A DNA stretch of 64,000 nt from a bacterium (GTDB taxonomy: Bacteria > Omnitrophota > Gorgyraeia > Aquiviventales > Aquiviventaceae), in contig DASWKB010000024.1 in assembly GCA_036396895.1 (NCBI GenBank), forward strand, positions 2,115 to 66,114. Reading direction: 5' to 3'. Positions within the stretch are counted from its first letter, which is position 1; each line of letters starts with the position of its first letter. Under the pieces are notes generated by a model. The model worked only from the letters and a program-made list of their open reading frames with translations. It ran no database searches and was not told the DNA's origin. A program made the position numbers and the translations under genes. This document shows, one piece after another, positions 61 through 63,297 of this stretch.

Positions 61-81
61 AGGCTGGAAGCTGGAATGATC
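61..81. repeat. hepta-2 tandem array (GCTGGAN orientation) with GATC-side cap
   Basis: Read directly: aggctgga-agctgga-atgatc. Confidence 0.6.
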
Positions 82-92
82 GGTGGCGACGA

Positions 93-128
93 TGCCAAAT
101 TCGGAATTCGGAATTGGGAATGCGGAAT
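93..128. repeat. hepta-1 tandem array (CGGAATN) with TGCCAAAT cap
   Basis: tgccaaat-tcggaat-tcggaat-tgggaat-gcggaat; identical 36-mer recurs at 6427-6462. Confidence 0.85.
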
Positions 129-130
129 GG

Positions 131-220
131 GTTATGTGCTGTCACGGGAACGCAGGTTTGTGCCGCAAAGGAAGATGACGCCTGTGCCTGTGTGGAGAGC
201 CTCCATTGTTGACGATTCAC
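131..220 (-). repeat. IGR-core element, alpha subfamily
   Basis: Reverse complement of the copy at 4435-4530. Ends in ccattgttgacgattca, the complement of the TGAATCGTCAACAA signature. Confidence 0.8.
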
Positions 221-234
221 AATTCACGGGAGGC

Positions 235-265
235 GAGAAGCTGAAAGCTGGAGGCTGGAACGATC
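235..265. repeat. hepta-2 tandem array
   Basis: gagaagctg-aaagctg-gaggctg-gaacgatc. Confidence 0.7.
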
Positions 266-330
266 ACGTGCCGCACGAACGATCAAGCGTGCATCTGTGC
301 ATAAGTGCAGGGCTATTGTTATTGACGACC
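262..330 (-). repeat. IGR-core element, beta subfamily (diverged)
   Basis: gatcacgtgccgcacgaacgatcaagcgtgcatctgtgcataagtgcag...ttgttattgacgacc aligns by eye to the reverse complement of the beta copies at 2721, 4322 and 7021. Confidence 0.7.
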
Positions 331-370
331 GTCATGCTCCGGCATCCTGCCCGTGTTCAGTCTCTTCAAT

Positions 371-424
371 AATCCGCAATCGGAAATCCGCAATCCGCAA
401 TTCACGATCCAGCCTCCAGCTTCC
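371..424. repeat. hepta-6 array (AATCCGC) followed by hepta-2 units
   Basis: aatccgc-aatcgga-aatccgc-aatccgc-aattcac-gat-ccagcct-ccagctt. The same composite recurs at 6813-6866. Confidence 0.8.
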
Positions 425-471
425 CGGTCGCCATCAACGGGCCAGGTATATCGGAAATTGGCTGGAAGGGC

Positions 472-1476
472 TCAGACAGGCAGCGCCACGCCGCGGAGGA
501 TCTGCGCGGCGTACTCGGGCGGAGTCGGGTTGATGTAGAATCCCGTGCCCCATTCGAAGCCGGCGACCCGCGTCAGCGCGGGGATGATCTCCAGGTGCCA
601 GTGATAGGTCTCGGGGTCCCTCAGCTGAAACGGCGCGGTGTGAATGACGAAGTTGTAGGGCGCGTTCTTGAGCGCTTCCCGCAGCCGCCCGAGAACCTCG
701 CGGACGATCCGGGCGAAGTCCGTCACCGTCTCCTGCGTCGCCAGCGCGAACTCCGGAAGATGCTCCTTCGGCAGCACCCACATCTCGAACGGGAACCGCG
801 ACACGTAGGGGCACACGGCCAGGAACGCCCGGTTCTCGCACACGACGCGCTCATCCTCGAGCAGCTCCTGCGAGGCGATGTCGCAGAAGACGCAGCGCTC
901 CCGCGCCTCGAAATACCGCTCGGCGCCCCGCAGCTCTTCCTCCACCCGCTTCGGCACGATCGGCAGCGCGATCAGCTGGGAATAGCTGTGCGTCAGCGTG
1001 GCGCCAGCCACCAGCCCCGAGTTTTTGAACACGAGGCCGTACTTGAGCCTCGCGTCCGCGCGGAGCGCCTGGGTGCGCAGCTGGTACGACGTGATCACCT
1101 GCCTGAGCTCCTCCTGGCTGAGGTCCGCGAGCTGACGCTGGTGATCCGGAGTTTCCACGATGATCTCATGGACGCCGACGCCCGAGGATTGGTCGAACAC
1201 GCCGAGGCCGCGCCGGGTCAGCATGCCGGACGCGTCCAGCGCCGGAAACTTATTCGGCACGACGCGCAGCCGCCAGCCGGGGCCGTCGACGGCGCCCACC
1301 GCCGGGCGGAGCGCGTACACCTCGGGCGGGGTCATCGCCTCGTTCCCGGGGCAGAACGGACACGTCCCGCCGGCGGGCGTGTCCGTCTCCACCTCGAACA
1401 CCTCGGGGCCGGAGGGCTCCAGCGTCTCGATGATCGTCCATCGTCCGGTGATGGGATCGCGCCTCAGCTCGGACAT
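472..1476 (-). CDS. GalT-like HIT-superfamily nucleotidyltransferase (galactose-1-phosphate uridylyltransferase family), paralog 1
   Basis: 334-aa ORF with CPFCPGNE zinc knuckle, VVPNKFPAL, FKNSGLVAGA, and C-terminal YHWHLEIIP and GFEWGTGFYINP. The expected His-x-His nucleophile site reads THSYSQ. Confidence 0.8.
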   Translation of the reverse strand: MSELRRDPITGRWTIIETLEPSGPEVFEVETDTPAGGTCPFCPGNEAMTPPEVYALRPAVGAVDGPGWRLRVVPNKFPALDASGMLTRRGLGVFDQSSGVGVHEIIVETPDHQRQLADLSQEELRQVITSYQLRTQALRADARLKYGLVFKNSGLVAGATLTHSYSQLIALPIVPKRVEEELRGAERYFEARERCVFCDIASQELLEDERVVCENRAFLAVCPYVSRFPFEMWVLPKEHLPEFALATQETVTDFARIVREVLGRLREALKNAPYNFVIHTAPFQLRDPETYHWHLEIIPALTRVAGFEWGTGFYINPTPPEYAAQILRGVALPV

Positions 1477-1477
1477 G

Positions 1478-2551
1478 TCAGCGCCGCTCCACGGCCTGCG
1501 ACGCCGGCGCCGGCGGCGCCCCGGCCGCCGCTTCGCGGAGATAACGCGCGGCTTCCTCCGGCGGCGTCGGGTTGATGTAGAACCCCGTGCCCCATTCGAA
1601 CCCCGCCACCCTCGTGAGGCGCGGAATGAGCTCCAGGTGCCAGTGAAAGTCGTCTTCCAGCGTCTTCCAGTGACCGAGTCTTCCCCGCCCGCTGCGAAAC
1701 GGCGCCGTATGCAGCAGGTAGTTGTACGGAGGGTCCTCCAGCACGGTCTTCAGCCGCGACAGGACCTCTTTGAGCGCCACCGGCAGCTCCCGGATCTCCT
1801 CCTGGCGCATGCGCGCGAAGTCCGGACTATGGCGCTTCGGCAGAATGCACAGCTCGAACGGAAACCGCGAGGCGAACGGCGCCAGCGCGATGATGTGGGG
1901 GGACTCGAACACGACCCGCACGCCCGATTCGCGCTCCTGCTGGATGACATCGCACATCAGGCAGCGCTCCTTGTCCTCGTAATAGCGGCGGCTGCACAGG
2001 AGCTCTTCCTTCACGACCTTGGGCGTGACGGGCGTGGCGATAAGCTGGGAGCGCGTGTGATCGATCCGGCCCGCGCCGGCCACCCCGCCGTGATTCTTGA
2101 ACCACAGCACGTAGCGGAAGCGCGGGTCCCGCTCCAGATCCACGATCCGGTTTACGGTCGTCTGTACCACCAGCTGGAGCTGCTCGGCCGACAAGTCCGC
2201 GGCATTGCTGACGTGTTTGGGGCTCTCGATGATCATCTCGTGCGCGCCGATGCCGTCCATCACGTCGTAGATCCCCTTCGCCCGCCGGTTCAGCCGGCCC
2301 TCGATGCGCAGCACGGGATTCACGCTCGGGATCACGCGAACGGTCCAGCCGGGCTTATCGGCGCCCGGGCGGGCGCGCACGGCGAGGATCTCCCGCCGCG
2401 TGTCCGCCTCGTGTCCCTCGCAGAAGGGGCACTCGGCCGGATCCGCATGCGCATCGTGCGGAGGGAGGAAGTCCTCGGGCCCTTTCGCGCGCTCGGTGGC
2501 GATGATGACCCACCGCCGCGTCAGGGGGTCTTTCCGAAGCTCAGGCATCAC
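1478..2551 (-). CDS. GalT-like HIT-superfamily nucleotidyltransferase, paralog 2
   Basis: 357-aa ORF ending 1 nt before the paralog 1 start. Has CPFCEGHE, VIPSVNPVL, FKNHGGVAGA, FHWHLELIP and GFEWGTGFYINP. The nucleophile site reads DHTRSQ. Confidence 0.8.
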   Translation of the reverse strand: MMPELRKDPLTRRWVIIATERAKGPEDFLPPHDAHADPAECPFCEGHEADTRREILAVRARPGADKPGWTVRVIPSVNPVLRIEGRLNRRAKGIYDVMDGIGAHEMIIESPKHVSNAADLSAEQLQLVVQTTVNRIVDLERDPRFRYVLWFKNHGGVAGAGRIDHTRSQLIATPVTPKVVKEELLCSRRYYEDKERCLMCDVIQQERESGVRVVFESPHIIALAPFASRFPFELCILPKRHSPDFARMRQEEIRELPVALKEVLSRLKTVLEDPPYNYLLHTAPFRSGRGRLGHWKTLEDDFHWHLELIPRLTRVAGFEWGTGFYINPTPPEEAARYLREAAAGAPPAPASQAVERR

Positions 2552-2564
2552 GCCAGTCCATTGG

Positions 2565-2601
2565 TGCCAATTTCGGAGTTCGGAATTGGAAATGCGGAAT
2601 T
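2565..2601. repeat. hepta-1 tandem array with TGCCAAT cap
   Basis: tgccaattt-cggagtt-cggaatt-ggaaatg-cggaatt. Confidence 0.8.
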
Positions 2602-2602
2602 G

Positions 2603-2690
2603 GTCTTGTGCTCTCTCGGGAACGCAGGTTTGTGCCGCAACGGAAGATGACGCTTGCGCATGTGTGCAGAGCTTCCGAGGTTGACGCTAG
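2603..2690 (-). repeat. IGR-core element, alpha subfamily (diverged at the signature end)
   Basis: gtcttgtgctctctcgggaacgcaggtttgtgccgcaacggaagatgacgc... is collinear with 131-220. Confidence 0.75.
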
Positions 2691-2720
2691 AGAACCGGTC
2701 GGATGCTGGAGCATGGAATG

Positions 2721-2799
2721 TGAATCGTCAACAACGAAGGCTCTGCACTCATGCACAGATGCACGCGTGCTCGTTCGTGCGGCACTCGACCATTCCAGC
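2721..2799 (+). repeat. IGR-core element, beta subfamily
   Basis: tgaatcgtcaacaacgaaggctctgcactcatgcacagatgcacgcgtgctcgttcgtgcggcac...cattccagc. It is convergent with the alpha copy at 2603-2690. Confidence 0.85.
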
Positions 2800-2816
2800 G
2801 ACCAGCCTCCAGCTTC
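2795..2816. repeat. hepta-2 tandem array
   Basis: ccagcga-ccagcct-ccagctt. Confidence 0.75.
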
Positions 2817-2827
2817 TACCCGATTCG

Positions 2828-3763
2828 TCACGACGCCGGTGGCGTTTCGAAGCGGTCGCCCGCGGCGATGCCGCGGCCCGCGACGAACGCCGCCGCCGGC
2901 ATCCGCCGGCGGCCACCGGGCTGAACCTCGAGAACCTGAAGCTCCCCCTGGCCCGTCGCGACCGCGATCCCATCGGAGGACGCGCGGACCACCGTGCCGG
3001 GCGCCGCCCCGCTTCGCGCATCAGGACACGCGCTCGCCGCGAAGATTCTGAGCGGCTCGCCTCCGCGCCACGCGGTCGCCACAGGCCACGGCACGAACGC
3101 CCGCACCTGCCGCTCCAGCTCGCGGGCCGGGAGCCTCCAGTCCAGGGTCCCCTGCGCCTTCGTCAGCTTGGGCGCGAACGTCGCTTCCTCGTCCCGCTGC
3201 GGCGTTTCCTTCGCCGTGCCGGCTGAGAGCTGATGCAGCGCTTCGATGAGCGCCTCCGCCCCCAGCGTCGAGAGCCGCGCGCTTAGGCCTTCGGATGTCT
3301 CCTCCGGCGCGATCGGCATGATCCGCCGGATGAGCACCGGCCCGGCATCCAGCGCTTCGACGAGCCGGTAAATGCAGACCCCCGTTTCCGGCTCGCCGTT
3401 CAGAATCGCCCACGGCACCGGCGCCGCCCCGCGGTACTTGGGCAGCAGCGACGGGTGAACGCCGAGCAGGCCGAACCGCACTGCCTCGAGCAAGTCGCGC
3501 CGCAACAGCTGTCCGTACGCGACCACCACGCCCACATCCGCCTCAAGCGGCGCGATCGCGTCGGCGCGCGGACGCTCCGGCTGCTGCACGATGAGACCCA
3601 GGCGCTCCGCCGCGGCTTTGACCGGCGACGGCGCCGGCTTGAGCCCCCGGCCCTGCGGCCGGTCCGGCCGCGACACGCACGCGACGACGCGGTGGTCCGA
3701 ATGGGCCAGCCGTTCGAGCACCGGGACGGCATACGCTGACGTGCCGAAATACACGACGCGCAT
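2828..3763 (-). CDS. fmt: methionyl-tRNA formyltransferase
   Basis: MRVVYFGTSAYAVPVLERL N-terminus, HPSLLPKYRGAAP motif and an Fmt C-terminal domain. The ATG at 3763 overlaps the def stop (TGATG). The track ORF extends to 3808. Confidence 0.9.
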   Translation of the reverse strand: MRVVYFGTSAYAVPVLERLAHSDHRVVACVSRPDRPQGRGLKPAPSPVKAAAERLGLIVQQPERPRADAIAPLEADVGVVVAYGQLLRRDLLEAVRFGLLGVHPSLLPKYRGAAPVPWAILNGEPETGVCIYRLVEALDAGPVLIRRIMPIAPEETSEGLSARLSTLGAEALIEALHQLSAGTAKETPQRDEEATFAPKLTKAQGTLDWRLPARELERQVRAFVPWPVATAWRGGEPLRIFAASACPDARSGAAPGTVVRASSDGIAVATGQGELQVLEVQPGGRRRMPAAAFVAGRGIAAGDRFETPPAS

Positions 3764-4251
3764 CAGCGCACGCGGCGCCGGAGCCTGAGCCGCAGGCGTG
3801 CCGGCCACGAGAGCCGGTCGACGAACAGCCGCCCGTCAAGGTGATCGCACTCGTGCTGGAGGATGATCGCCAGCAGGCCCTCGGCCTCGATCCTGAACGG
3901 ATTGCCGTTCCGGTCCTGGGCCGCGACGCGCACCCACGCCGAGCGCTTCACCTTCGCCCACGCACCCGGAAGGCTCAGGCACCCCTCCGTCAGCGCCGCG
4001 CGGCCGTGTTGGGCCTCGATCACCGGATTGGCCAAGAGGAGCTCCTCGCCACGCCGCTGCGTATGGCCGACGACGCAGAGCCTGAGCGATTCGCCGACCT
4101 GCGGCGCCGCCAGCCCCACGCCGTCGTTGGCGTGCATCGTCTCGATCATCTCCGCCGCCAACCGGCGCAGGGCCTCCGCGAACTCCGTTACCGGCTCCGC
4201 GCGCCGGCGCAGGGCCGGCGCCGGCGCGAAGGTCAACACGCGCGCGCCCAT
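3763..4251 (-). CDS. def: peptide deformylase
   Basis: The three deformylase motifs are all present: GVGLAAPQVG, EGCLSLPG, QHECDHLDG. Classic def-fmt gene order. Confidence 0.92.
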   Translation of the reverse strand: MGARVLTFAPAPALRRRAEPVTEFAEALRRLAAEMIETMHANDGVGLAAPQVGESLRLCVVGHTQRRGEELLLANPVIEAQHGRAALTEGCLSLPGAWAKVKRSAWVRVAAQDRNGNPFRIEAEGLLAIILQHECDHLDGRLFVDRLSWPARLRLRLRRRVR

Positions 4252-4262
4252 ATCTTATGCGT

Positions 4263-4290
4263 ATTCTATCGTCGCCATCCCAAAAAGCAA
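4263..4290 (-). promoter_or_regulatory. sigma70-like promoter candidate upstream of def-fmt
   Basis: On the minus strand: TTGCTT, a 16-nt spacer, TAGAAT, then 12 nt to the def ATG. Lies in a locally AT-richer stretch. By-eye match only. Confidence 0.35.
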
Positions 4291-4321: not shown

Positions 4322-4400
4322 TGAATCGTCAACACCGAAGGCTCTGCACCCGTGCACAGATGCACGCGTGATCGTTCGTGCGGCACGTGATCATTCCAGC
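4322..4400 (+). repeat. IGR-core element, beta subfamily
   Basis: tgaatcgtcaacaccgaaggctctgcacccgtgcacagatgcacgcgtgatcgttcgtgcggcacgtgatcattccagc. Confidence 0.85.
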
Positions 4401-4423
4401 TTCTCGCGTCCAGCTTCTCGCCT
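4396..4423. repeat. 14-nt direct repeat x2 (hepta-2-derived linker)
   Basis: ccagcttctcgcgt-ccagcttctcgcct. The same linker is seen at 6994-7011 and 7108-7124. Confidence 0.8.
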
Positions 4424-4434
4424 CCCGTGAATTA

Positions 4435-4530
4435 TGAATCGTCAACAACGGAGGCTCTCCACACAGGCACAGGCGTCATCTTCCTTTGCGGCACAAACCT
4501 GCGTTCCCGTGAGAGCACATAACCCATTCC
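4435..4530 (+). repeat. IGR-core element, alpha subfamily
   Basis: tgaatcgtcaacaacggaggctctccacacaggcacaggcgtcatcttcctttgcggcacaaacctgcgttcccgtgagagcacataacccattcc. Confidence 0.85.
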
Positions 4531-4548
4531 GAATTCCGAAGTTGGCAT
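4526..4548. repeat. hepta-1 array (ATTCCGN orientation) with cap
   Basis: attccga-attccga-agttggcat. Confidence 0.7.
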
Positions 4549-4567
4549 CTATCCAATCTCGCACTTC

Positions 4568-6077: not shown

Positions 6078-6142
6078 CCTGCTATTGTCGGGCAAGCTCA
6101 CCACTCACGCCAGCATAAAATCCGGGCCGGAGGCCAACGGCC

Positions 6143-6177
6143 GCGTAACGTGAAACGCGTAACGCGTAACGTGATCG
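6143..6177. repeat. hepta-3 tandem array
   Basis: gcgtaac-gtgaaac-gcgtaac-gcgtaac-gtgatcg. Confidence 0.8.
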
Positions 6178-6180: not shown

Positions 6181-6285
6181 GTCTTGTGCCGTGACGGACG
6201 ATGAGGATTGTACAGTGACGACAGATGACGCCTGTGCATTTGTGCAACGCCTTGTTTGTTGGTGCCCGAACTGAATGAGTCATAA
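6181..6285 (-). repeat. IGR-core element, degenerate copy
   Basis: gtcttgtgccgtgacgg...agatgacgcctgtgcatttgtgcaacgccttgtttgttgg...ctgaatgagtca keeps blocks of the alpha core. Confidence 0.5.
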
Positions 6286-6340
6286 GTGAGAGGCTTGAAG
6301 GTAGCGCCTGGAATGCGGGGGCGGATCATGCTTGGAACAT

Positions 6341-6368
6341 GGGACGGGGGACAGGGGACGTGGACGGA
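6341..6368. repeat. hepta-4 tandem array
   Basis: gggacgg-gggacag-gggacgt-ggacgga. Confidence 0.8.
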
Positions 6369-6384: not shown

Positions 6385-6415
6385 GAGAAGCTGGAGGCTG
6401 GAAGCTGGAATGATC
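6385..6415. repeat. hepta-2 tandem array
   Basis: gagaagctg-gaggctg-gaagctg-gaatgatc. Confidence 0.8.
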
Positions 6416-6426: not shown

Positions 6427-6462
6427 TGCCAAATTCGGAATTCGGAATTGGGAATGCGGAAT
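6427..6462. repeat. hepta-1 tandem array with TGCCAAAT cap
   Basis: Identical to 93-128. Confidence 0.85.
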
Positions 6463-6464
6463 TG

Positions 6465-6549
6465 GTCTTGTGCTGTCACGGGAACGCAGGCTTGTGCCGT
6501 CATAGAAAGTCACGAGTGTGCATAAGCGAAACGTCTTCGTTGTTGACGG
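6465..6549 (-). repeat. IGR-core element, alpha-like
   Basis: gtcttgtgctgtcacgggaacgcaggcttgtgccgtcatagaaagtcacgagtgtgcataagcgaaacgtcttcgttgttgacgg. Confidence 0.75.
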
Positions 6550-6583: not shown

Positions 6584-6696
6584 GAATCGTCAACAACGGA
6601 GGCTCTGCACACATGCACAATCGTCATCGTGCATCGCGGCACACACCTGCTCTCCCGGTACGGCACAAGACCCATTCCGCATTCCGCACCATGCTC
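6584..6696 (+). repeat. IGR-core element, gamma subfamily
   Basis: 113 nt identical by hand comparison to 7135-7247. Starts gaatcgtcaacaacggaggctctgcacacatgcacaatcgtcatcgtgcatcgcggcac. Confidence 0.9.
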
Positions 6697-6812
6697 GCGC
6701 GTGACACGTTACGCGGCATGTCATGCTCATCACGCTCCAGTTCCGTATGCCTCCCCTGTCCCAAGCGTGGCTCGCCTATGACTCCGATCCTCCCGGTCTG
6801 CTCAAGTCTTTC

Positions 6813-6866
6813 AATCCGCAATCCGAAATCCGCAACCCGCAATTCACACGGAGCCTCCAGCTTCAG
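6813..6866. repeat. hepta-6 array followed by hepta-2 units
   Basis: aatccgc-aatccga-aatccgc-aacccgc-aattcac...gagcctccagcttcag. Paralogous to 371-424. Confidence 0.8.
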
Positions 6867-6896: not shown

Positions 6897-6960
6897 CCGT
6901 GACGCGTTTCGCGTTACGCGGGCCCGCAAGTCGGGGGTCCCCTCGGGGGCTGTCCCCCTT
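6897..6960. repeat. hepta-3 units followed by G5/C5-rich hepta-4-like palindromic stretch
   Basis: ccgtgacgcgtttcgcgttacgcgg...tcgggggtcccctcgggggctgtccccc. Confidence 0.6.
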
Positions 6961-6971: not shown

Positions 6972-7011
6972 CTTCCAGCCTCCAGCCTCTAGCGTCCAGC
7001 TTCTCGCCTCC
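6972..7011. repeat. hepta-2 tandem array plus conserved linker
   Basis: cttccagcctccagcctctagcgtccagcttctcgcctcc. Confidence 0.8.
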
Positions 7012-7020: not shown

Positions 7021-7100
7021 TGAATCGTCAACAACGAAGGCGCTGCACTCATGCACAGATGCACGCGTGATCGTTCGTGCGGCACGTGATCATTCCAGCC
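7021..7100 (+). repeat. IGR-core element, beta subfamily
   Basis: tgaatcgtcaacaacgaaggcgctgcactcatgcacagatgcacgcgtgatcgttcgtgcggcacgtgatcattccagcc. Confidence 0.85.
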
Positions 7101-7124
7101 TCCAGCGTCCAGCTTCTCGCCTCC
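7091..7124. repeat. hepta-2 tandem array plus conserved linker
   Basis: cattccagcctccagcgtccagcttctcgcctcc. Confidence 0.8.
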
Positions 7125-7134: not shown

Positions 7135-7247
7135 GAATCGTCAACAACGGAGGCTCTGCACACATGCACAATCGTCATCGTGCATCGCGGCACACACCTG
7201 CTCTCCCGGTACGGCACAAGACCCATTCCGCATTCCGCACCATGCTC
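7135..7247 (+). repeat. IGR-core element, gamma subfamily
   Basis: 113 nt identical to 6584-6696. Confidence 0.9.
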
Positions 7248-7281
7248 TCACGTTACACGTTCCACGTTTCACGTGACACGC
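7247..7281. repeat. hepta-3 tandem array directly downstream of the priA stop
   Basis: ctcacgtta-cacgttc-cacgttt-cacgtga-cacgc. Confidence 0.8.
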
Positions 7282-9340: not shown

Positions 9341-9428
9341 TGCCAAATGCGGAATTCGGAATCGGGAATTCGGAATCGCGCGTTCGGGCCTTCATTCCGC
9401 ATTCCGAATTCCGCATTCCGAATTTGGC
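9341..9428. repeat. inverted hepta-1 arrays forming a long imperfect hairpin
   Basis: Left arm tgccaaatgcggaattcggaatcgggaattcggaat, loop of about 17 nt, right arm attccgcattccgaattccgcattccgaatttggc. Mismatches fall at the variable heptad position. Confidence 0.85.
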
Positions 9429-9481: not shown

Positions 9482-9509
9482 GTGCCCCCTGCCCCCCGCC
9501 CCTTGCCCC
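9482..9509. repeat. hepta-4 tandem array (NNGCCCC orientation)
   Basis: gtgcccc-ctgcccc-ccgcccc-ttgcccc. Confidence 0.85.
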
Positions 9510-10241: not shown

Positions 10242-10346
10242 GGGTTCACCCTGCGATTGGGGCAACGGGCGGGAGGCACGGGACATGAACCGTAAGTCCA
10301 TTGATCGTGGACCGTGTAACGTGTCCTGTAGGAACACATGCACATA

Positions 10347-10381
10347 GGTTCCAGGTTCCAGCTTCCACCTTCCAGCATCCG
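10347..10381. repeat. hepta-2-like tandem array
   Basis: ggttcca-ggttcca-gcttcca-ccttcca-gcatccg. Confidence 0.8.
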
Positions 10382-10391: not shown

Positions 10392-10423
10392 CACGTTACA
10401 CGATACACGTTACACGTTACGCG
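10392..10423. repeat. hepta-3 tandem array spanning the stop codon of the 10410 gene
   Basis: cacgtta-cacgata-cacgtta-cacgtta-cgcg. Confidence 0.85.
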
Positions 10424-11585: not shown

Positions 11586-11664
11586 GGAAGCTTGAAGCTA
11601 GAAGCTCGATGATGGAACGAGCGATCCGATCATTCCAGCTTCAAGCTTCCAGCCTCCAGCTTCC
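11586..11664. repeat. inverted hepta-2 arrays with a perfect 14-bp stem
   Basis: ggaagcttgaagct (11586-11599) is the exact reverse complement of agcttcaagcttcc (11637-11650). Further CCAGCNT units run to 11664. Confidence 0.8.
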
Positions 11665-12429: not shown

Positions 12430-12514
12430 GGAAGCTGGACGGTGGAGGCTGGAAGCTGGAACGGGTATCGTTGGGCTTCCACCTGAATGATCTAACGTCC
12501 AGCTTCGAGCTTCA
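12430..12514. repeat. hepta-2 arrays in inverted orientation
   Basis: ggaagctggacggtggaggctggaagctggaac ... gtccagcttcgagcttca. Confidence 0.75.
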
Positions 12515-19550: not shown

Positions 19551-20692
19551 GCCGCTGTCAGTCCTGCCTCATCGTCCTGCCGCACCACCTCCGCGCCGTG
19601 CGCCCACCGCAACAGGCGCATCGCCCGCACCCACCCCTCGCCCGGCGCCGCGATCACGTCGTAGCGCTTCTTGCGCCGCTTGAGGACCCGCGCCGCCGCC
19701 GCCACACTCCCCCCGCGCGCCGGGACGCGCATCCAATGGATGTCCGCGTGAGGAATCTGCCCCACGGAGCGCATCATCGCCTGCGGCGTCAAACCGGACG
19801 GCAGCGGGGCGAACACGTACACGTGCGTGCGCCGCCGGGCCCACGCGAGCACGCGCGCCAGCCACGCCTTGAGCTCCTCCGACTCCGGCGCGCCGCTCTC
19901 ACGCTGCGGCCACGCGATGCGGATCCGTCGGCCCCACTTCTCGTCGCACCATCGCTGGTTGCGACGGAACAAGGCTTCCCGCTCGGGCATCTTCTTCACC
20001 GTCTTGTGCTCGGCATGGAACACGTACGCCCCTTCGGCGACGACGCAGCGGAACCCCGCCCGCTGGGCGCGCATGCAGAAGTCCTCGTCCTCGAAAAAAA
20101 TCCGCTCAACCTCTTCGCTCAACCCCCCCGTCCGGTCCAGGACCGAGCGCTTGATGAGCATGCAGAACCCGATGCACATCCCGACCTCGGTGTACGTCCC
20201 CCTGCGCCCGGCGCGCACCGCCGCGTGCTCGTCCAGCGACACGCCCCGCGCCGGCACGTCGCCGAAGGTGCTGCTGCCGGGATTGACGACGCCCACGTCC
20301 TGGTTCACCGCCGCGACAGCGACCATTTCGTCCAGCCATCCCGGGGTGAAGCGCAGGTCGTTATTCAGCAGGACCACGTACGGGGCGCGCGAGGCGCGGA
20401 TGCCCCGGTTCATGCCCTTCGGAAAGCCTTCGTTCGTCTCGTTCTGCAGCAGCACGACGTCGGTGATCGCGCCCTGCGGCCGCACGCCCGCGAGAAACTC
20501 CCGCACGGGCGCGTCGCTCCCGTTGTCCACGATGAGGAGCCGGCTGGGAACCCTGGTCGTCGCGAAGAGGCTCTCGAGGCACGGCCGCGTTTCCTCGAGA
20601 TGGTTCCAGCTCAGCAACACCAGATCACACGCCACCCCAGGTCCACTGTCCACAGACGACGGTCCACTGACCACAGCGTCACCGGGCATCAC
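19529..20692 (-). CDS. GT2-family glycosyltransferase
   Basis: LVLLSWNHLEETRPCLESL, IVDNGSDAP, LLNNDLRFTPGW. Start uncertain (20692, 20689 or a GTG near 20635) because the first ~15 codons are a hepta-5 array. Confidence 0.8.
   Translation of the reverse strand: MMPGDAVVSGPSSVDSGPGVACDLVLLSWNHLEETRPCLESLFATTRVPSRLLIVDNGSDAPVREFLAGVRPQGAITDVVLLQNETNEGFPKGMNRGIRASRAPYVVLLNNDLRFTPGWLDEMVAVAAVNQDVGVVNPGSSTFGDVPARGVSLDEHAAVRAGRRGTYTEVGMCIGFCMLIKRSVLDRTGGLSEEVERIFFEDEDFCMRAQRAGFRCVVAEGAYVFHAEHKTVKKMPEREALFRRNQRWCDEKWGRRIRIAWPQRESGAPESEELKAWLARVLAWARRRTHVYVFAPLPSGLTPQAMMRSVGQIPHADIHWMRVPARGGSVAAAARVLKRRKKRYDVIAAPGEGWVRAMRLLRWAHGAEVVRQDDEAGLTAAWARRSR
20638..20677. repeat. hepta-5 tandem array (GTCCACN)
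   Basis: caggtccactgtccacagacgacggtccactgaccacagc. Confidence 0.75.
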
Positions 20693-20825: not shown

Positions 20826-20866
20826 GCTGTGGTCTGTGGACAGTGGACTGTGGACTGCGTGTGGAC
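20826..20866. repeat. hepta-5 tandem array, inverted orientation (TGTGGAC)
   Basis: gctgtggtc-tgtggac-agtggac-tgtggac-tgcgtgtggac. Abuts the stop of the 20866 gene. Confidence 0.8.
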
Positions 20867-22066: not shown

Positions 22067-22150
22067 TGCCAAATGCGGAATCCGGAATTGGGAATTCGGA
22101 ATTATTGCGGACCGTGGAGATTCCGCATTCCGCATTCCGCATTCCGAATT
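22067..22150. repeat. inverted hepta-1 arrays forming a hairpin
   Basis: tgccaaatgcggaatccggaattgggaattcggaatt, loop of about 16 nt, attccgcattccgcattccgcattccgaatt. Confidence 0.85.
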
Positions 22151-23010
22151 ACCGTATTCTTCAGAGGATTGGCGAGGCCGAGACGCGATTCGGCCAGTTC
22201 CAGCAGCCGCCTCAGCCGGTGGGCGTACGTGTGGCGCTCCAGAACGAGCGAGGAGCCCGCGCGGGCGATCTCCGTGCGCGCCGGCTCATCCGCCAGATAC
22301 CGATCGATGACCTCGAAGAGCTCCTCGGGCCGCCGGTACGTGACCAGGTGCTCACCGGGCTCCAGGCCCAGCGCTTCCATCTCCCCGTTGTCCAGCGCGT
22401 TCGTGACCAGGAGCGCGCCCGCGGCCATCACTTCGAACATCCGCATGTTGACGTCATTGGCGATGGAAAAGTTGAAGCCGACCCTGGCCCGCCCGTAAAT
22501 GTGCGCCAGGTCCGTGTGGGGAGCTCGCCCAATCCGGCTGGACGGATAGCGCTCGCGCAAGGCCTGCAGGATGAATTTGCGCGGCACGCCGCCGTCATTG
22601 CCGACGAACGCGACGTCCCAGACGGCACCCTGCGGCGGCGCGGCGTGCACCCGGGGGTCGCAGGCCACCGGAAGCCACTCGGCCCCTGGCAGCCGTTCCG
22701 CCCCCGAGAGATGGCACGACAGAAGGAGATCGTAGCGTCCCGCCGTCCGGCGGATCTTCCTGAAACTGTGCGGCAGGTGCGTATCAATTGCGTAGAACAC
22801 CGCGGGTCGCAGCATCTTCGGCAGCGGCACCTCGTAATCGTCCCCATGGTCCACCCGAAGATACAGATCGTACTCTGGAGGCGGAGGAATGCGCGCCGCC
22901 TCGCTCAGGCTCCAATGATCATGCGCCACGCCCAGTGCGTCGCAGGCGCGCTCGAGATACCCGCCGGTGGTGTCCGGCCTCGTCGTGTTGAAAATGAGCG
23001 CAATCTTCAT
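22102..23010 (-). CDS. CgeB-family / Glyco_trans_1_2-type glycosyltransferase-like protein
   Basis: MKIALIF N-terminus. VGFNFSIANDVNMRMFEVMAAGALLVTN resembles the CgeB family. Alternative ATGs at 23019 and 23025. The last ~12 codons translate the hepta-1 hairpin (IRNAECGMRN). Confidence 0.6.
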   Translation of the reverse strand: MKIALIFNTTRPDTTGGYLERACDALGVAHDHWSLSEAARIPPPPEYDLYLRVDHGDDYEVPLPKMLRPAVFYAIDTHLPHSFRKIRRTAGRYDLLLSCHLSGAERLPGAEWLPVACDPRVHAAPPQGAVWDVAFVGNDGGVPRKFILQALRERYPSSRIGRAPHTDLAHIYGRARVGFNFSIANDVNMRMFEVMAAGALLVTNALDNGEMEALGLEPGEHLVTYRRPEELFEVIDRYLADEPARTEIARAGSSLVLERHTYAHRLRRLLELAESRLGLANPLKNTVIRNAECGMRNLHGPQ

Positions 23011-23889: not shown

Positions 23890-23979
23890 TGCCAAATTCG
23901 AAATTGGGAGTTCGGAATGCGAAATTGCATGTGCGGATCTGATATTCCGCGTTCCGCATTCCGCATTCCGCATTTGGCA
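23890..23979. repeat. inverted hepta-1 arrays forming a hairpin
   Basis: tgccaaattcgaaattgggagttcggaatgcgaaat, loop of about 18 nt, attccgcgttccgcattccgcattccgcatttggca. Confidence 0.85.
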
Positions 23980-24003
23980 AGGTTCATGCTCGGCTCACGT
24001 CAC

Positions 24004-24024
24004 GCGCCCCTCGCCCCGTGCCCC
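24004..24024. repeat. hepta-4 tandem array (NNGCCCC orientation)
   Basis: gcgcccc-tcgcccc-gtgcccc, immediately downstream of the DegT-family stop. Confidence 0.75.
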
Positions 24025-24026
24025 GT

Positions 24027-25218: not shown

Positions 25219-25354
25219 GCGTCACGTGAAACGCGTAACGCGCCTTCATGTTGGACATGAGCCTCGCCCCACCGTTCCGGCCATCTGACTCGTCTTCAAT
25301 CATGATCGCGCTCGTTTGCTTCCCACGTTTCGCGTTACGCGTTACGCGTGACGC
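25219..25354. repeat. inverted hepta-3 arms around an ~80-nt loop
   Basis: gcgtcacgtgaaacgcgtaacgcg ... cacgtttcgcgttacgcgttacgcgtgacgc. The right arm spans the stop of the 25335 gene. Confidence 0.8.
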
Positions 25355-26447
25355 GATCCGCGGTTGTCGCCATGACCTCGTCGCAGGCCGCCAGGACATC
25401 CTCCACGCTGAGCTCCCTGAGGCACGCCCGGTCGTACGGACACGGCGGGAACCGGAACCGGTGATAGCACGGCCGGCAAGGCAAGCCCTGGATGTGCACC
25501 GCGCGGCGGCTCGGGCCGGGCGGATACGGCCCGTACACCCTGGGGTCGACCGGCCCGAAGATCGCCACGGTCGGGACCGACTGCGTGACCGCCAGGTGAA
25601 CCGGACCGCCGTCGTTCGCGAGCACGAGGCGACACCGGCTCAAGATCGCCACGAACTCCCCGAGCGTCGTGCGGCCGCTCGCATCGAGGGCCCCCTCGCC
25701 GATGGCGCGCGTCATGGCCGCGCAGACCGTGCGGTCGGCCTCTTCGCCCAGCACCAGCACCGCATAGCCGCGCCGCGCGAATTCCCTCCCGGCCGCGGCG
25801 AAATGCGCTTGGGGCCAGCGCCGGTACTGCGCCTCGGCCCCCCAGCTCACTCCGCCCGCGGGCATGAGCGCCACGCACGGCTTCCCCTCCGGAGTGCCCA
25901 TCTCTCGCAGCCGCGCATCCGCCCGCCGCCGATCCTCATCGGTGAGACTCAGCTCCATCCGCCGGTCGTCGAGCTTGAACCCCAGCGCCGCCATCAGCGA
26001 CGCGTGATGCTCAATCACGTGGCGGCCGTCGAAGCCCGCGATGCGCATCCGGCGCGTCAGAAACCGGCCGCGCCGCCGGTACGCGTAGCCCATCCGGCGA
26101 CGCACGCCCAGGAGCGACAGGATGAAGCTGTACTGCTCCACCAGCGACAGATCAAGCGCGAGATCGACGCGCGCGCGACGGATGCCGATGAGCAGGCGCC
26201 CCAGCGCGCCCAGCGCCGCGAGCGGACGCGACTTCCACAGCGCGTCCAGCTCGTCCTTTTCGTACACGAAGAGCTGATCAAGATGCGGATTGCGCCGGAG
26301 CACCGCTTCGGTCCGGCGATTGCAGAGGTAACTCAACCGCGCGCGGGGAAACGCCGCGCGCAGCGCCCGGATCACCGGCGTGGAGAACAGGACGTCGCCG
26401 ATCCCGAACGGGTTGATGATGAGAATGCTCGACACCGCCGAGGGCAT
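25335..26447 (-). CDS. GT9-family glycosyltransferase (heptosyltransferase-like)
   Basis: ILIINPFGIGDVLFSTPVIRAL and ANDGGPVHLAV. Confidence 0.85.
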   Translation of the reverse strand: MPSAVSSILIINPFGIGDVLFSTPVIRALRAAFPRARLSYLCNRRTEAVLRRNPHLDQLFVYEKDELDALWKSRPLAALGALGRLLIGIRRARVDLALDLSLVEQYSFILSLLGVRRRMGYAYRRRGRFLTRRMRIAGFDGRHVIEHHASLMAALGFKLDDRRMELSLTDEDRRRADARLREMGTPEGKPCVALMPAGGVSWGAEAQYRRWPQAHFAAAGREFARRGYAVLVLGEEADRTVCAAMTRAIGEGALDASGRTTLGEFVAILSRCRLVLANDGGPVHLAVTQSVPTVAIFGPVDPRVYGPYPPGPSRRAVHIQGLPCRPCYHRFRFPPCPYDRACLRELSVEDVLAACDEVMATTADRVTRNA

Positions 26448-41036: not shown

Positions 41037-41140
41037 GGGGTGGGACATGGGACGCGGGACCGGGAACATGTCTCCGCGCCTCAACGCTCGTCCTCTCCCT
41101 GCGCCACGTCCCCTGTCTCAAACGTGAGCCCTGTCCACGC
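41037..41140. repeat. hepta-4 array plus partial inverted copy
   Basis: gggacat-gggacgc-gggaccg-ggaacat ... cacgtcccctgtctc...gccctgtcc. Confidence 0.65.
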
Positions 41141-41152: not shown

Positions 41153-41173
41153 CACGTGACACGTGACACGTTG
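41153..41173. repeat. hepta-3 tandem array just downstream of the 41187 gene stop
   Basis: cacgtga-cacgtga-cacgttg. Confidence 0.8.
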
Positions 41174-58920: not shown

Positions 58921-59554
58921 GCTTCCTGAGCAGAAACATCGCGTCCTCGAGCGGCTCCGTCCGGTACGGAAGCCGCTCCTCCCGCACGAGCTCCAGATCC
59001 GGGCAGGCCGCGCGGTACAGCGCCGCGTAGTCCGCCTTCCAGAGTAAATTCGCGCGGCCCCGGTAGGGCACGCCGGTCAGCTCCGGCGCGAAGTACTCCA
59101 GCCCCAGAATGCCGCGGCGCGAACAACGGTGGATCTCGCGCATCGCCGTCGCGAGATCCGCCGGAGCCAGATGGATCAGCACCCCGGAGGTGAACACCAG
59201 ATCGAAGGACCCGTCCCGGAACGGCAGGCCCGTTGCCGAGCCCTGAATCAGCGTGACACCCGGCAGGCGGCTCCGGGCGCGCGCGACCGCGTACGCCTGC
59301 AGCTCGATCCCGTAGAGCCGGGTGAATCCCTGCCGCCTGAGGCACCCCAGCTGAGTACCCACGTTCGTGCCGACTTCCAGGATCCGGGCCCCGCGGTCGA
59401 CGCCGTCCAGGAACCGCGCGTTGAGCGCGCTGCGCGTGACTCCGTAGCGCGACTCGTACATCGCGTCCAGCTCCTCAATCGTGAGGTCGTTCCGGTCGGT
59501 GTACGACCGGCCGAACGGGCCGCTCCACACGGCGGCCTGCGGCGTCTCAGGCAT
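58892..59554 (-). CDS. pseudaminic-acid-biosynthesis-associated methylase-like SAM methyltransferase
   Basis: ILEVGTNVGTQL and DLVFTSGVLIHL. Its position between pseC and the cytidylyltransferase matches the Pse-associated methylase family. Confidence 0.72.
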   Translation of the reverse strand: MPETPQAAVWSGPFGRSYTDRNDLTIEELDAMYESRYGVTRSALNARFLDGVDRGARILEVGTNVGTQLGCLRRQGFTRLYGIELQAYAVARARSRLPGVTLIQGSATGLPFRDGSFDLVFTSGVLIHLAPADLATAMREIHRCSRRGILGLEYFAPELTGVPYRGRANLLWKADYAALYRAACPDLELVREERLPYRTEPLEDAMFLLRKRERGCASSP

Positions 59555-60719: not shown

Positions 60720-61777
60720 CACGCGTCGCTCAGGCACGGCTCCGAGAGACCCAGCAGGTCCCGCAGCTCCTCGGGGGTCAGCCGCGCGGGATTCGTGTCG
60801 CTCGCGTACCGGAATCCCGGCGGCAGCGGACGCCCGTCCGTCCAGCGCTCGCTTCTCCACCACGCGTGCGCCGGGCGGATGACGTACATGTCGTCCAGCT
60901 CCACGGCCTGCCGCGCCTCGTCCTCCGAGACCAGGACTTCGTGGATCTTTTCCCCGGGCCGGATCCCGATTTCCTCGATGCGGCAGTCCGGCGCCAGCGC
61001 TTTGCACAGATCAAGAATGCTCATGCAGGGGATCTTCGGCACGAAGATCTCCCCGCCGTGCATCGACGTCAGGCAGCGGATGACGAAGCGGACGCCCTGG
61101 TCGAGCGTCAGCCAGAAGCGCGTCATGCGCGGGTCCGTCACCGTCACCGTGCCGCCGGCCCGCTGGGCGAGAAACAGCGGGACGACGCTGCCGCGGCTGC
61201 CGACGACGTTGCCGTACCGGGCGCACGCGAAGCGCGTCCCGCCGGCGCCGGCGTAGGCGTTGCCCTGCACGAAGAGCTTTTCGGCGCACAGCTTCGTCGC
61301 GCCGTAGAGGTTGATGGGGTTCACCGCCTTGTCGGTGCTCACCGCCAGGACCCGCTTGACGCCGCAGTCGATCGCGGCGTCGATCACGTTCTTCGCCCCG
61401 ATAATGTTCGTCTGCACGGCCTCGAACGGGTTGTACTCGCACGCCGGCACCTGCTTGAGCGCCGCCGCGTGCACCACGAGGTCCACCCCGTGCATCGCCC
61501 TCCGGAGCCGATCAAGATCGCGCACGTCGCCGATGAAGTAGCGCACCGGCGATCCGGGGCCGTCGGGCACGCGCTGGCGCATCTCGTGCTGCTTGAGCTC
61601 GTCCCGGCTGAAGATGATCAGCTTCTTGGGGCGCGCGGAGGCCAGCACCGCCTCCGTGAACTTCTGCCCGAACGATCCCGTGCCGCCCGTGACGAGGATC
61701 GTCGATCCGTCCAACGACAAGGATTCGCGCATTGTCTCCGTCCCTCCCGGCGCCTGAGGCCCTCGCCGGGCGCTCAT
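60719..61777 (-). CDS. pseB: UDP-N-acetylglucosamine 4,6-dehydratase (inverting)
   Basis: [36 protein letters not shown]. Start at 61777 (ATGA overlap) or 61732. Confidence 0.9.
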
Positions 61778-62712
61778 GTCCGCTCCAGTTGCGTGCGAAA
61801 CCACGCGATCGTCTTGGTCAGCCCCTCCGCGAGGGCGGTCTTCGGCTGCCAGCCGAGCACCCGCGACGCGGCGCCGATATCGGGGCAGCGCTGTTTGGGG
61901 TCGTCCTGCGGCAGCGGCCGCGATTCGATGCGGCTGGGGCTCTTCGTCATGCGGATGATCTCCTCCGCGAGCTGCCGCACCGTGTACTCCCCTGGGTTGC
62001 CGATGTTCATCGGCTCGTCGTAGTCGGAGTGCATCAGCCGCACGATCCCTTCGATGAGATCGTCCACGAAGCAGAACGAGCGGGTCTGGCTGCCGTCCCC
62101 GAACACCGTCACCGCCTCGCCGCGCAGCGCCTGGGTGATGAACGCCGGGATCGCCCGCCCATCGTGCATTCTCATTCTCGGCCCGTAGGTGTTGAAGATC
62201 CGGACAATGCGCGTATCCACGCCGTGGCTGCGGTGATACGCCATCGTGAGCGCCTCGGCGAAGCGCTTCGCCTCGTCGTAGACCCCGCGAGGGCCGACGG
62301 GGTTCACGTGCCCCCAGTAGGACTCCGGCTGCGGGTGGACCTGGGGATCGCCGTAGACTTCCGAGGTGGACGCCAGGAGGAACTTCGCGCCCTTGGCCTT
62401 CGCCATGCCGAGCGTGTTGTGGGTGCCCAGCGCGCCGACCTTGAGCGTCGGGATCGGGTGCTTGAGGTAATCGATGGGACTCGCCGGCGAGGCGAAATGC
62501 AGGATGAAGTCGATGGAGCCGTCCGGCGTGTACGGGCGGCTGACGTCATGGACGACGTGCGTGAAGCGCGTCTGTCCCAGGAGGGCGGCGATGTTGTCCG
62601 GGTTGGCCGTGATCAGGTTGTCCACGCAGATGATCTCGTGGCCGTCACGATGCAATCGCTCGCACAGGTGCGAGCCGAGGAACCCGGCTCCGCCGGTAAT
62701 GAGCATCCGCAT
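61774..62712 (-). CDS. UDP-glucuronate decarboxylase-like SDR (UXS family)
   Basis: [35 protein letters not shown]. Confidence 0.9.
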
Positions 62713-62966
62713 CAGGTGGCCTCCAGGAGTGGCATGGCCGGCTGCACGGCCGGCTTGGGATCGGGGGCCCGCTTCAACAGGAAGATTCCCCGGTGCTTGT
62801 GCTGACGCCGCCGGATGAACCCCTTGCGCTCAAGGGCGGTCAAGCGGTCGATGGCTGACTTGTAGGAGACGATGCGGCAGCCGGCCTGGACTTCCCGGAT
62901 CAGCGGAGCCCGGCTGTGCTCGCGCACGTAGTCCTCGATAAATATCAGGACACTGCGCTGTTTCAT
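62712..62966 (-). CDS. stand-alone LexA-N-terminal-type winged-helix DNA-binding protein
   Basis: 84 aa. [45 protein letters not shown] parallels the LexA DNA-binding domain. No S24 peptidase domain. Its stop overlaps the start of the next gene. Confidence 0.6.
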
Positions 62967-63030
62967 GGTGAGCTGAGATCTGGCCAGGACTGACTCCTAT
63001 CCACCGGCGTGAACACGCTCTATCCAGTCA

Positions 63031-63078
63031 AAGGGAAATATTACTATAACTGAATCAAGGGGATTAGCAAGAAAAACC
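63031..63078 (-). promoter_or_regulatory. AT-rich island upstream of the supercluster (possible promoter region)
   Basis: aagggaaatattactataactgaatcaagggattagcaagaaaaacc stands out in GC-rich DNA. The minus strand reads TTGCTA, 15 nt, TATAGT. Spacing is suboptimal and this is a by-eye match only. Confidence 0.25.
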
Positions 63079-63096
63079 TGAACGATTTCGAGCCAC

Positions 63097-63126
63097 ATGC
63101 GGAATTCGGAATGGGGAATGGGGAAT
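63097..63126. repeat. hepta-1-like tandem array
   Basis: tgcggaat-tcggaat-ggggaat-ggggaat-t. Confidence 0.75.
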
Positions 63127-63198
63127 TACTGACGGACCAGCGTGTCGCGCGGCATGCAAGAGTGGGAGATTCCGGTACGCTACGTGATGTCGCTGTTC

Positions 63199-63230
63199 AT
63201 TCCAGCTTCCAGCATTTAGCGTCCAGCTTC
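63199..63230. repeat. hepta-2 tandem array
   Basis: ttccagcttccagcatttagcgtccagcttcg. Confidence 0.7.
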
Positions 63231-63248
63231 GGACCGGCCGTGTCCGCT

Positions 63249-63297
63249 CACACGTGACACGTGACGCGTTTCACGTTTCACGTTACACGTTACGCGG
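63249..63297. repeat. hepta-3 tandem array (about 7 units) spanning the stop of the 63290 gene
   Basis: cacacgtga-cacgtga-cgcgttt-cacgttt-cacgtta-cacgtta-cgcgg. Confidence 0.85.

Follow-up and report, generated by a model that had tools for sequence, protein, structure and literature searches.

Heptanucleotide repeat arrays behind stop codons form mosaic modules in the intergenic DNA of a bacterial glycan gene cluster

The stretch analyzed here (64,000 nt of contig DASWKB010000024.1, positions 2,115 to 66,114; hereafter the window) is occupied almost wholly by one minus-strand gene cluster of ~60 kb, which runs in one direction and is made up of glycan genes encoding glycosyltransferases, sugar epimerases/dehydratases, aminotransferases, methyltransferases, asparagine-synthase-like enzymes, NeuB, an O-antigen ligase-like protein and an ABC exporter. 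The gaps between the genes contain short tandem arrays of 7-nt units. By their period excess and mainly non-coding location these arrays are very probably heptanucleotide long simple sequence repeats (SSRs), and they are also modules of longer dispersed mosaic repeats. A first-pass annotation, made from the sequence alone, had described the arrays incompletely: it missed the mosaic modules, the pairing of arrays into hairpins and the anchoring at stop codons.

Tandem Repeats Finder returned ~40 period-7 rows, located where the first-pass annotation had placed the arrays. In a self-match scan over periods 2 to 14, period 7 yielded 25 arrays, each of the other periods up to 13 yielded 0-3, and period 14, being twice 7, yielded 16; strict counts of period-7 arrays in the window range from 25 to 27. 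When the window was simulated 100 times with a second-order Markov model, the mean was 0.56 period-7 arrays and the maximum 3. Genes were called by combining long open reading frames (ORFs) that are GC-rich at third codon positions, Pfam hits and the gene calls of a public contig of identical sequence. By these calls the non-coding share of the window is 6.4%, and all 25 arrays lie inside or overlap the non-coding part. Under a strict coverage rule (three or more units, with 12 or more of 14 matching), the share of bases in period-7 sequence is 16.6% for the 4,059 intergenic bases versus 0.17% for the remaining bases, and most of the latter is overhang into gene termini. Since the arrays are intergenic and have a period of 7, they are not coding-derived, as the first-pass annotation had argued; its claim that 7-nt tandem arrays fill the intergenic gaps was likewise borne out by Tandem Repeats Finder, the period scan and the simulations. 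Its count of ~45 arrays is fair when arrays of 2-3 copies are included (43 are listed). The statement that gene bodies are free of arrays stands apart from one strict segment, 32712-32733, and the statement that every gap longer than 100 bp has arrays is nearly right: the gaps 2549-2827 and 4252-4567 contain short or degenerate arrays only (2-2.5 copies), and a possible gap at 59346-59546, where the gene calls are uncertain, contains no array.

Assembly artefact and adaptor contamination were considered and ruled out, as the arrays are internal, have real genes on both flanks and are the same in a second assembly (ENA metagenome contig ERZ27256989 k141_2930132 matches window 1-11682 at 100% identity). 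An assembly artefact is also implausible because every array is shorter than a sequencing read, and the presence of arrays in long-read metagenome-assembled genomes (MAGs) of other phyla counts against it.

All six unit families named in the first-pass annotation are present: h1 (CGGAATN), h2 (CCAGCNT, or GCTGGAN), h3 (CACGTNA/CGCGTAA), h4 (GGGGACN), h5 (GTCCACN) and h6 (AATCCGC), the last being the reverse complement of h1 but for one base. The G-rich family is heterogeneous, with GGGGACN, GGGGGCA, GGGGCRN and GGGACNT units. On the same contig, 1.9-2.1 kb beyond window position 1, four further arrays lie between convergent genes (L001 13571-13786). This adjoining gap contains units that are absent from the window (GGACGCT x4.4 and TGGAAGA x5.6), so six families is a lower bound. 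The earlier claim that variation falls mostly at one unit position is correct for h1 (48% minor bases at position 7, at most 15% elsewhere) and for h2 in the GCTGGAN frame (40% at position 7, at most 17% elsewhere), and fails for h3, in which variation is distributed over three positions. At the variable position of h1, T (24 units) and G (17) predominate over C (4) and A (1). Strict h1, h2 and h3 arrays in the window comprise 3-6 units, mostly 4.

The arrays are assembled with other conserved sequences. A core of ~100 nt occurs in seven copies, all in the first 7.3 kb of the window, each flanked by an h1 array and, at its opposite end, by an h2 array or h2 remnant; its conserved blocks are, in order, TGTGC, CGGGA, GCAGG, TGTGCCG, GATGACG and GTTGACG. 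A second core (C2) is present in four copies and has its last ~40 nt in common with the ~100-nt core. The h1 arrays bear a conserved outer cap, TGCCAAAT, and an h1 hairpin unit of ~90 nt (array, loop, inverted array) is found in three copies with 77-80% identity to each other; both of its caps, GCCAAAT...ATTTGGC, are present in two copies, and the left cap only in the copy at 22066-22156. Because caps and cores are conserved, the arrays appear to have been copied as units rather than to have arisen in place. Two other readings of the ~100-nt core were tried and rejected. As a structured RNA, it gave weak consensus folds on both strands (-11.4 and -5.7 kcal/mol) and essentially no covariation. 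As a promoter, its conserved TTGACG has no -10 box in sight at the right spacing, and window 1-13000 has 0 promoter-like sites; the same region, when scanned, lacked sigma-70-like promoters and was not enriched in canonical terminators.

The arrays are placed with respect to stop codons. In the sense of the transcript, 12 of the arrays that come first behind a gene begin between -11 and +22 nt relative to its stop codon, usually 0-22 nt past it, and five stop codons (7283, 10410, 25335, 41187 and 63290) are overlapped or abutted by h3 arrays. For units with G-runs, the G-rich strand is the sense strand in 7/8 first-after-stop arrays, 0-48 nt from the stop, by our tally in the window. A Shine-Dalgarno reading of the GGAGG in h2 was rejected because the sense h2 arrays checked (10346-10380, 11633-11664 and 4395-4425) lie 56-143 nt from the next start, which is too far. 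At 22102-22159, the ORF of a Glyco_trans_1_2 protein traverses a sense h1 array and ends within the loop of the hairpin, so that the repeat encodes its last ~19 codons and may have replaced its native C-terminus.

Sense and antisense arrays pair into long predicted hairpins, in which mismatches recur at intervals of about seven bases. The predicted folding energies of five inverted-array regions are -34.6 to -53.4 kcal/mol (z -3.8 to -5.9), and 0/200 shuffles fold as well. In the clearest case, 9340-9432, 6-bp helices are split by single mismatches at the variable unit position. Searches against Rfam 15 gave 0 matches at the gathering score over the whole window, and an E-value threshold search on 1-12600 found no family over the arrays; in 18 array-bearing loci of other phyla the arrays were likewise uncovered. 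The Rfam searches gave a single match at chance level (E = 0.4). The coordinates of arrays, cores and hairpin arms are collected in Table 1.

Table 1 Arrays, cores and hairpin arms of the window, with distances to the nearest upstream stop codon where these are given
Feature	Positions	Strand	Remark
h2 array (GCTGGAR)	61..77	+	
h1 array (CGGAATK) x4.4	98..128	+	cap TGCCAAAT in front
~100-nt mosaic core, copy 1 of 7	117..218	+	between h1 and h2 arrays
h2 array x3.4	237..260	+	
second core (C2), copy 1 of 4	260..328	-	
h6 array (AATCCGC) x4.4	371..401	+	
h2 array	405..424	-	GCTGGAR strand is transcript sense; 47 nt past stop at 472
degenerate h1 array	2570..2587	+	with cap
mosaic core, copy 2	2591..2686	+	
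C2 copy and short h2 array	2721..2817	+	h2 array at 2802-2816, 11 nt past stop at 2828
C2 copy	4322..4418	+	
h2-derived array	4395..4425	-	14-nt super-period
mosaic core, copy 3	4440..4540	-	
h1 array	4526..4545	-	transcript sense; 22 nt past stop at 4568
h3 variant array (CGCGTAA) x4.3	6142..6171	+	
mosaic core, diverged copy	6181..6261	+	65-72% identity
h4 array (GGGGACN) x3.3	6337..6359	+	
h2 array x3.4	6387..6410	+	
h1 array x4.6	6432..6463	+	with cap
mosaic core, copy 4	6451..6548	+	
mosaic core, copy 5	6584..6685	-	inverted relative to copy 4
h1 array x2.3	6673..6688	-	
h6 array x4.6	6812..6843	+	
h3 variant array x3.3	6898..6920	-	
h2 array x5.4	6974..7011	-	
C2 copy	7021..7117	+	
h2 array x4.4	7094..7124	-	
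mosaic core, copy 6	7139..7236	-	98% identity to copy 5
h1 array x2.3	7224..7239	-	
h3 array (CACGTNA) x4.6	7249..7280	+	2 nt past PriA stop at 7283
h1 array	9346..9378	+	3' arm of capped hairpin
h1 array	9393..9424	-	5' arm of hairpin 9340-9432 (-44.9 kcal/mol, z -5.35)
G-rich array (transcript sense GGGGGCA)	9483..9509	-	48 nt past uracil-DNA glycosylase stop at 9558
h2 array x4.6	10346..10380	-	
h3 array x4.1	10392..10420	+	overlaps stop codon at 10410
h2-like array	11587..11606	+	3' arm of hairpin 11577-11673
h2 array	11633..11664	-	5' arm of that hairpin (-53.4 kcal/mol, z -5.92); 9 nt past stop at 11674
h2 array	12430..12461	+	3' arm of hairpin 12425-12511
short h2 array	12498..12511	-	abuts stop at 12512
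weak h5 array (GTCCACN)	20641..20674	+	annotated 5' end of ORF 19529-20692
h5 array x4.4	20827..20857	-	8 nt past stop at 20866
h1 array	22072..22103	+	3' arm of hairpin (22066-22156 unit)
h1 array x5.6	22120..22159	-	5' arm; within last ~19 codons of ORF 22102-23265
degenerate h1 arm	23892..23937	+	with cap
h1 array x4.4	23944..23974	-	5' arm of hairpin 23888-23980
G-rich array (transcript sense GGGGCRN)	24003..24026	-	abuts stop at 24027
short h3 variant array	25228..25243	+	
h3 variant array x4.3	25326..25362	-	overlaps stop at 25335
short GGGACNT array	41040..41054	+	
h3 array x2.7	41153..41171	+	15 nt past stop at 41187
h1 array x4.3	63097..63126	+	
h2 array x4.4	63200..63230	-	
h3 array x6.3	63250..63293	+	overlaps stop at 63290

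The genes at the low-coordinate end, encoding PriA, uracil-DNA glycosylase (UDG), peptide deformylase, the formyltransferase Fmt and two GalT-like proteins, allowed a comparison with related genomes. PriA is 100% identical to one NCBI entry; the next-best matches, at 59-63%, are mostly labelled Candidatus Omnitrophica/Omnitrophota, no relative above 63% was found beyond the identical entry, and the assembly of one relative is labelled Planctomycetales. The host is an uncultured GC-rich bacterium of the Planctomycetes-Verrucomicrobia-Chlamydiae (PVC) group, with 'Candidatus Omnitrophica' MAGs among its relatives. Six related loci share the gene order deacetylase - monogalactosyldiacylglycerol (MGDG) synthase - UDG - PriA - (...) - def - fmt - GalT - GalT - GAPDH, with junction gaps of mostly 0-130 nt versus 97-1205 nt in the window. 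Period-7 arrays, and none of any other period, are present at these junctions in 4/6 relatives (L122 7176-10049, L126 8976-9992, L127 2303-12033 and L128 5728-18416) and frequently overlap stop codons. Their units (GCAGCGA, GAGTGRC/CACTCAC, AGTCCRT, CTATGTG, AGCAAAT, CCGTAGW, GACAGGA and others) are unrelated to those of the window and to each other's. Since the same junctions carry unrelated units, what this clade keeps is the 7-nt period and the placement just past a stop, and not the sequence. Several of the relatives' units contain a stop codon (ATAGTCC, CCGTAGA and ATAGCAA), and because 7 = 1 mod 3, three copies of such a unit put a stop in all three frames.

The priA-def interval of the window (4568-6104) holds a Tmemb_14-family gene and an MFS transporter gene, plus a 1.2-kb repeat-filled gap; in the relatives L122, L123, L125, L127 and L128 its place is taken by an opposite-strand TPR gene or by only 64 nt. 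On comparison of gene order, this junction has been remodelled. Two ORFs of the glycan cluster, 53602-55305 (567 aa) and 15855-16277 (140 aa), had no Pfam match at E <= 1e-5, and a tRNA and tmRNA scan of the window found none.

Heptanucleotide repeats in intergenic DNA have been on record since about 1990; the short tandemly repeated repetitive (STRR) units 1-3 of heterocystous cyanobacteria are CCCCAGT, TTGGTCA and CAACAGT. To our knowledge, neither a function of heptamer repeats nor the reason for their 7-nt period has been explained so far. The window resembles the STRR case in having several tandem heptamer families across the intergenic DNA of one genome, and differs from it in host phylum, in its units and in being GC-rich. 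Neither STRR1-3, in the forms just given, nor GGGAATC, GGGGAYT or TAACTGA, which are taken up below, have any tandem occurrence in the window, and CGGGAAT appears only as isolated units inside h1 arrays. The first-pass annotation was right in stating that the units differ from STRR, as STRR1-3 are not tandem here; nor is the host a heterocystous cyanobacterium. It had also failed to recognise the unit set, and in the searchable literature we found the h1 string only in primers, the window's unit set not at all and nothing tying such repeats to Omnitrophota. Its implied novelty for a GC-rich lineage does not hold. As summarised in two later papers (PMC4679880, PMC4692102), the survey of Mrazek, Guo and Shah (Mrazek 2007) included GC-rich Burkholderia, Actinobacteria and Xanthomonas, found that in most prokaryotic genomes heptanucleotides outnumber all other simple repeats with long units, and proposed polymerase slippage with a 7-nt footprint as their cause. 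According to the same summaries, the surveyed repeats share with ours the over-representation of period 7, a mostly non-coding location and a scatter over phyla; they were treated as slippage repeats, whereas h1 here is T/G-mixed, fixed in length and capped, like a copied motif.

A close likeness is to the G-rich repeats GGGAATC of Xanthomonas and GGGGAYT of Nostoc, for which Rehm et al. 2015 (PMC4692102) identified no function. An intergenic bias, a preference for four copies, coding-strand proximity to stop codons, inverted pairs and transcription were reported for them (PMC4692102). As in the window, these are 7-nt tandem, intergenic arrays of about four copies whose sequence and length differ between related genomes and which show no link to gene function; the G-rich strand is on the coding strand, 0-50 nt from or overlapping a stop codon, and convergent inverted pairs give stem-loops. 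h1 also has the GGAAT core in common with GGGAATC. The window differs in its other units, in at least six co-occurring families, in having a single strong quadruplex array, in its larger mosaics and in its uncultured PVC-group host. The TAACTGA arrays common to marine Beggiatoaceae, cyanobacteria and Bacteroidetes (MacGregor, PMC4679880) provide a parallel to CGGAATK (see below), being one heptamer in short intergenic arrays of distant phyla with no known transfer mechanism; they lie just upstream of start codons, seemingly replacing Shine-Dalgarno sites, whereas the arrays of the window lie just downstream of stops.

The mosaic organization itself recalls the repetitive extragenic palindromes (REPs) and bacterial interspersed mosaic elements (BIMEs) of enterobacteria, in which imperfect palindromes and conserved linkers form mosaic intergenic units behind stops inside operons, in many diverged copies. 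E. coli REPs within 15 nt of stop codons affect translation and mRNA stability. Unlike our arrays, REPs are not 7-nt tandem repeats, and they have a GTAG head and a cognate REP-associated tyrosine transposase (RAYT); we saw no GTAG head at the array ends and no RAYT (IS200/IS605-like) transposase among the ~50 window proteins.

When one genome of each GTDB species was scanned for four CGGAATN copies, at least 120 loci were found, in Acidobacteriota, Planctomycetota, Chloroflexota, Oscillospiraceae and other Clostridia, Bacteroidota, Gemmatimonadota and, among the matches listed, also Nitrospirota, Verrucomicrobiota, Myxococcota, Armatimonadota and others, more than 12 phyla in all; in IMG/VR, 56 viral contigs have such four-copy arrays. 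T and G are mixed at the variable base in 71/146 genome arrays (among the matches listed) and 29/63 viral arrays, and transition-type mixtures are rare. Exactly four strict copies are found in 120/146 genome arrays (again among those listed) and 54/63 viral arrays. As controls we took two composition-matched heptamers in IMG/VR (12 and 19 viral contigs), together with h2 (18 contigs). All 32 arrays of the two control heptamers are homogeneous, as are 49/50 when h2 is added, with copy numbers from 4 to 18, as expected of slippage repeats; h3 arrays are rare. Among the matches listed, 49/175 arrays, read as CGGAATK, have a long ORF ending at most 10 nt upstream versus 10/175 in the opposite orientation, and in 24 of these 49 the first AATKCGG unit is overlapped or immediately preceded by the stop codon. 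In these listings, partner ATTCC motifs lie downstream of 64/184 arrays versus upstream of 15/184, and strict array pairs are ordered 5'-CGGAATK...MATTCCG-3' in 10/10 cases. Flanks and interiors of the arrays are unrelated between phyla. In some Oscillospiraceae loci a stop codon is followed by an array and then by a GC-rich hairpin with a T-run.

Three single loci deserve mention. In a Terriglobia MAG (L041, JBEKAD010000031.1), 18 period-7 arrays of about ten units lie within 8 kb, a density and diversity similar to those of the window though the phylum is unrelated. In a Saprospiraceae MAG (L062 2022-2316), an inverted CGGAATK pair fills the spacer between two tRNA genes, and in a Bacteroidia MAG (L056 2148-2257) a CGGAATK array is separated by 24 nt from a SAM-II riboswitch. 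When an h1 array was compared by BLAST with annotated plasmids and with annotated phages, each set gave one unannotated match, and the motif's absence from the literature may follow from annotated plasmids and phages hardly containing it. Because only two control units were used and the ORF position test is crude in GC-rich genomes, we regard the CGGAATK contrast as a lead and not as a result. That (AATKCGG)n, with n ~4 and K T/G-mixed within the array, beginning in or near the stop of a co-oriented gene, is a discrete undescribed motif rather than a slippage microsatellite is a speculative proposition that we consider unlikely at this stage. Such a cross-phylum motif would suggest either reading by a widely conserved machine, for which the terminating ribosome, an RNase and an OB-fold RNA-binding protein whose footprint spans 7 nt are examples, or spread by a broad-host-range mechanism.

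The arrays of the window very probably belong to the heptanucleotide simple-repeat (STRR/long-SSR) class. As for their origin, we infer that 7-nt units duplicated or slipped in the short spacer just behind stop codons would have seeded arrays, which would then have been copied genome-wide as mosaic palindromic modules of the forms cap-array-loop-array-cap and array-core-array. In the transcript, an array just past a stop would pair with its inverted partner to form a long imperfect hairpin and, by analogy with REPs and BIMEs, such hairpins, should they have a function, would most likely serve as punctuation of mRNA 3' ends by blocking 3' exonucleases, damping read-through or uncoupling cistrons. 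For this whole package, comprising class assignment, seeding behind stops, modular spread and REP-like punctuation, we estimate a probability of roughly 0.45. Several observations weigh against it. First, the hairpins are not classical intrinsic terminators because they have no U-tract. Second, in 11 hairpins, drawn from the window and from other phyla, pairing is seen at 21/33 variable unit positions and at 195/198 constant ones; compensatory pairing at the variable position was thus rejected as unsupported, and the arms are not kept complementary by compensation. Third, a partner array is missing from roughly half of the CGGAATK arrays of other phyla, so that the hairpin is not the whole story. 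Fourth, neither strand of the ~100-nt core has a conserved fold or covariation. At last, the fast turnover of units among relatives, and the absence of arrays from the junctions of two of the six, suit a neutral or selfish element as well as a functional one.

This last point leads to the alternative that the arrays are functionless, neutral or selfish products of replication slippage that favours 7 nt and acts in the few non-coding bases behind stops. Heptamers are the commonest long SSR class, with polymerase slippage as their proposed cause (Mrazek 2007, per PMC4679880 and PMC4692102), wholly different units occupy the same junctions of related genomes, arbitrary control heptamers too form arrays in viral contigs, and the neighbouring genes are of ordinary function. 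Slipped-strand expansion, which the first-pass annotation had also proposed, suits the slippage-like controls; alone, it fits h1 poorly, given the T/G mixing, the sharp four-copy peak and the caps, since the control arrays are homogeneous and conserved caps and cores imply copying as units. The excess of arrays whose G-rich strand is sense rather than antisense to the gene ending within 10 nt (49 versus 10) also speaks against neutrality, and we consider this explanation rather unlikely.

The period itself might instead reflect a protein; the first-pass annotation, too, had suggested a factor that reads a 7-nt register. The arrays could be a platform on which a single-stranded RNA- or DNA-binding protein, for instance one with a cold-shock domain, sits in a 7-nt register and tunes hairpin formation, termination, decay or coupling. 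Cold-shock proteins, able to bind one per heptamer, were named as candidate readers of TAACTGA (PMC4679880), and Bacillus CspB, according to the review in the same paper, was reported on heptamer direct repeats with one protein per heptamer. The conservation of period over unit sequence in the clade, the constraint on six of seven unit positions in h1 and h2 and the sense-strand bias would agree with such a reader. Cold-shock proteins are, however, weakly sequence-specific, and no candidate protein was identified: the ~50 window proteins, which cover 64 kb only, include no RNA-binding regulator. We therefore regard a platform of this kind as quite unlikely.

Similarly, the array-core-array and capped palindromic units in several diverged copies, the uniform order of the strict pairs and the syntenic gaps that are larger than in relatives would suit arrays acting as terminal inverted repeats of miniature transposable elements, resembling miniature inverted-repeat transposable elements (MITEs) or the REP/RAYT system and mobilised in trans. 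Against this, no target-site duplications were seen on reading the sequence at 9340-9432, 22066-22156 and 23888-23980, no transposase, RAYT or reverse transcriptase is encoded within the 64 kb, the interiors of array pairs are unrelated between other phyla, and the ~100-nt core had 0 matches in JGI metagenomes, making such elements a very unlikely source. 

A G-quadruplex role of the kind proposed for the Xanthomonas and Nostoc heptamers, where the four-copy preference matches the four G-tracts that a quadruplex needs (PMC4692102), is extremely improbable as an explanation for all families, because a single array qualifies: 9483-9509 (minus-strand sense GGGGCAAGGGGCGGGGGGCAGGGGGCA), for which alone a strong quadruplex is predicted, in transcript sense (-32.5 against -4.0 kcal/mol), while predictions for 6337-6359 and 6974-7011 are marginal two-tetrad ones, the h1, h2 and h6 arrays have GG runs only, with no quadruplex predicted for the tested h1 arrays, h6 arrays and h2 array 11633-11664, and h3 has no G-run on either strand.

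Repeats of such a type are not new; the dispersal as mosaic modules, the anchoring at stop codons, the pairing of arrays into hairpins and the lineage-specific units are new details for this lineage. The window represents an extreme case in an uncultured lineage of the PVC group, with about one sixth of its intergenic DNA in period-7 sequence, at least six families and mosaic units. It offers two comparative handles: related genomes in which the same junctions carry unrelated units, and a unit, CGGAATK, that behaves unlike control heptamers across phyla in its four copies, its T/G mixture and its sense orientation at stops. The cross-phylum CGGAATK motif is the part most worth following. If its contrast with the controls holds, a vague class of 'simple repeats' would become a definable motif that could be tested in cultivable carriers such as Oscillospiraceae and Planctomycetota.

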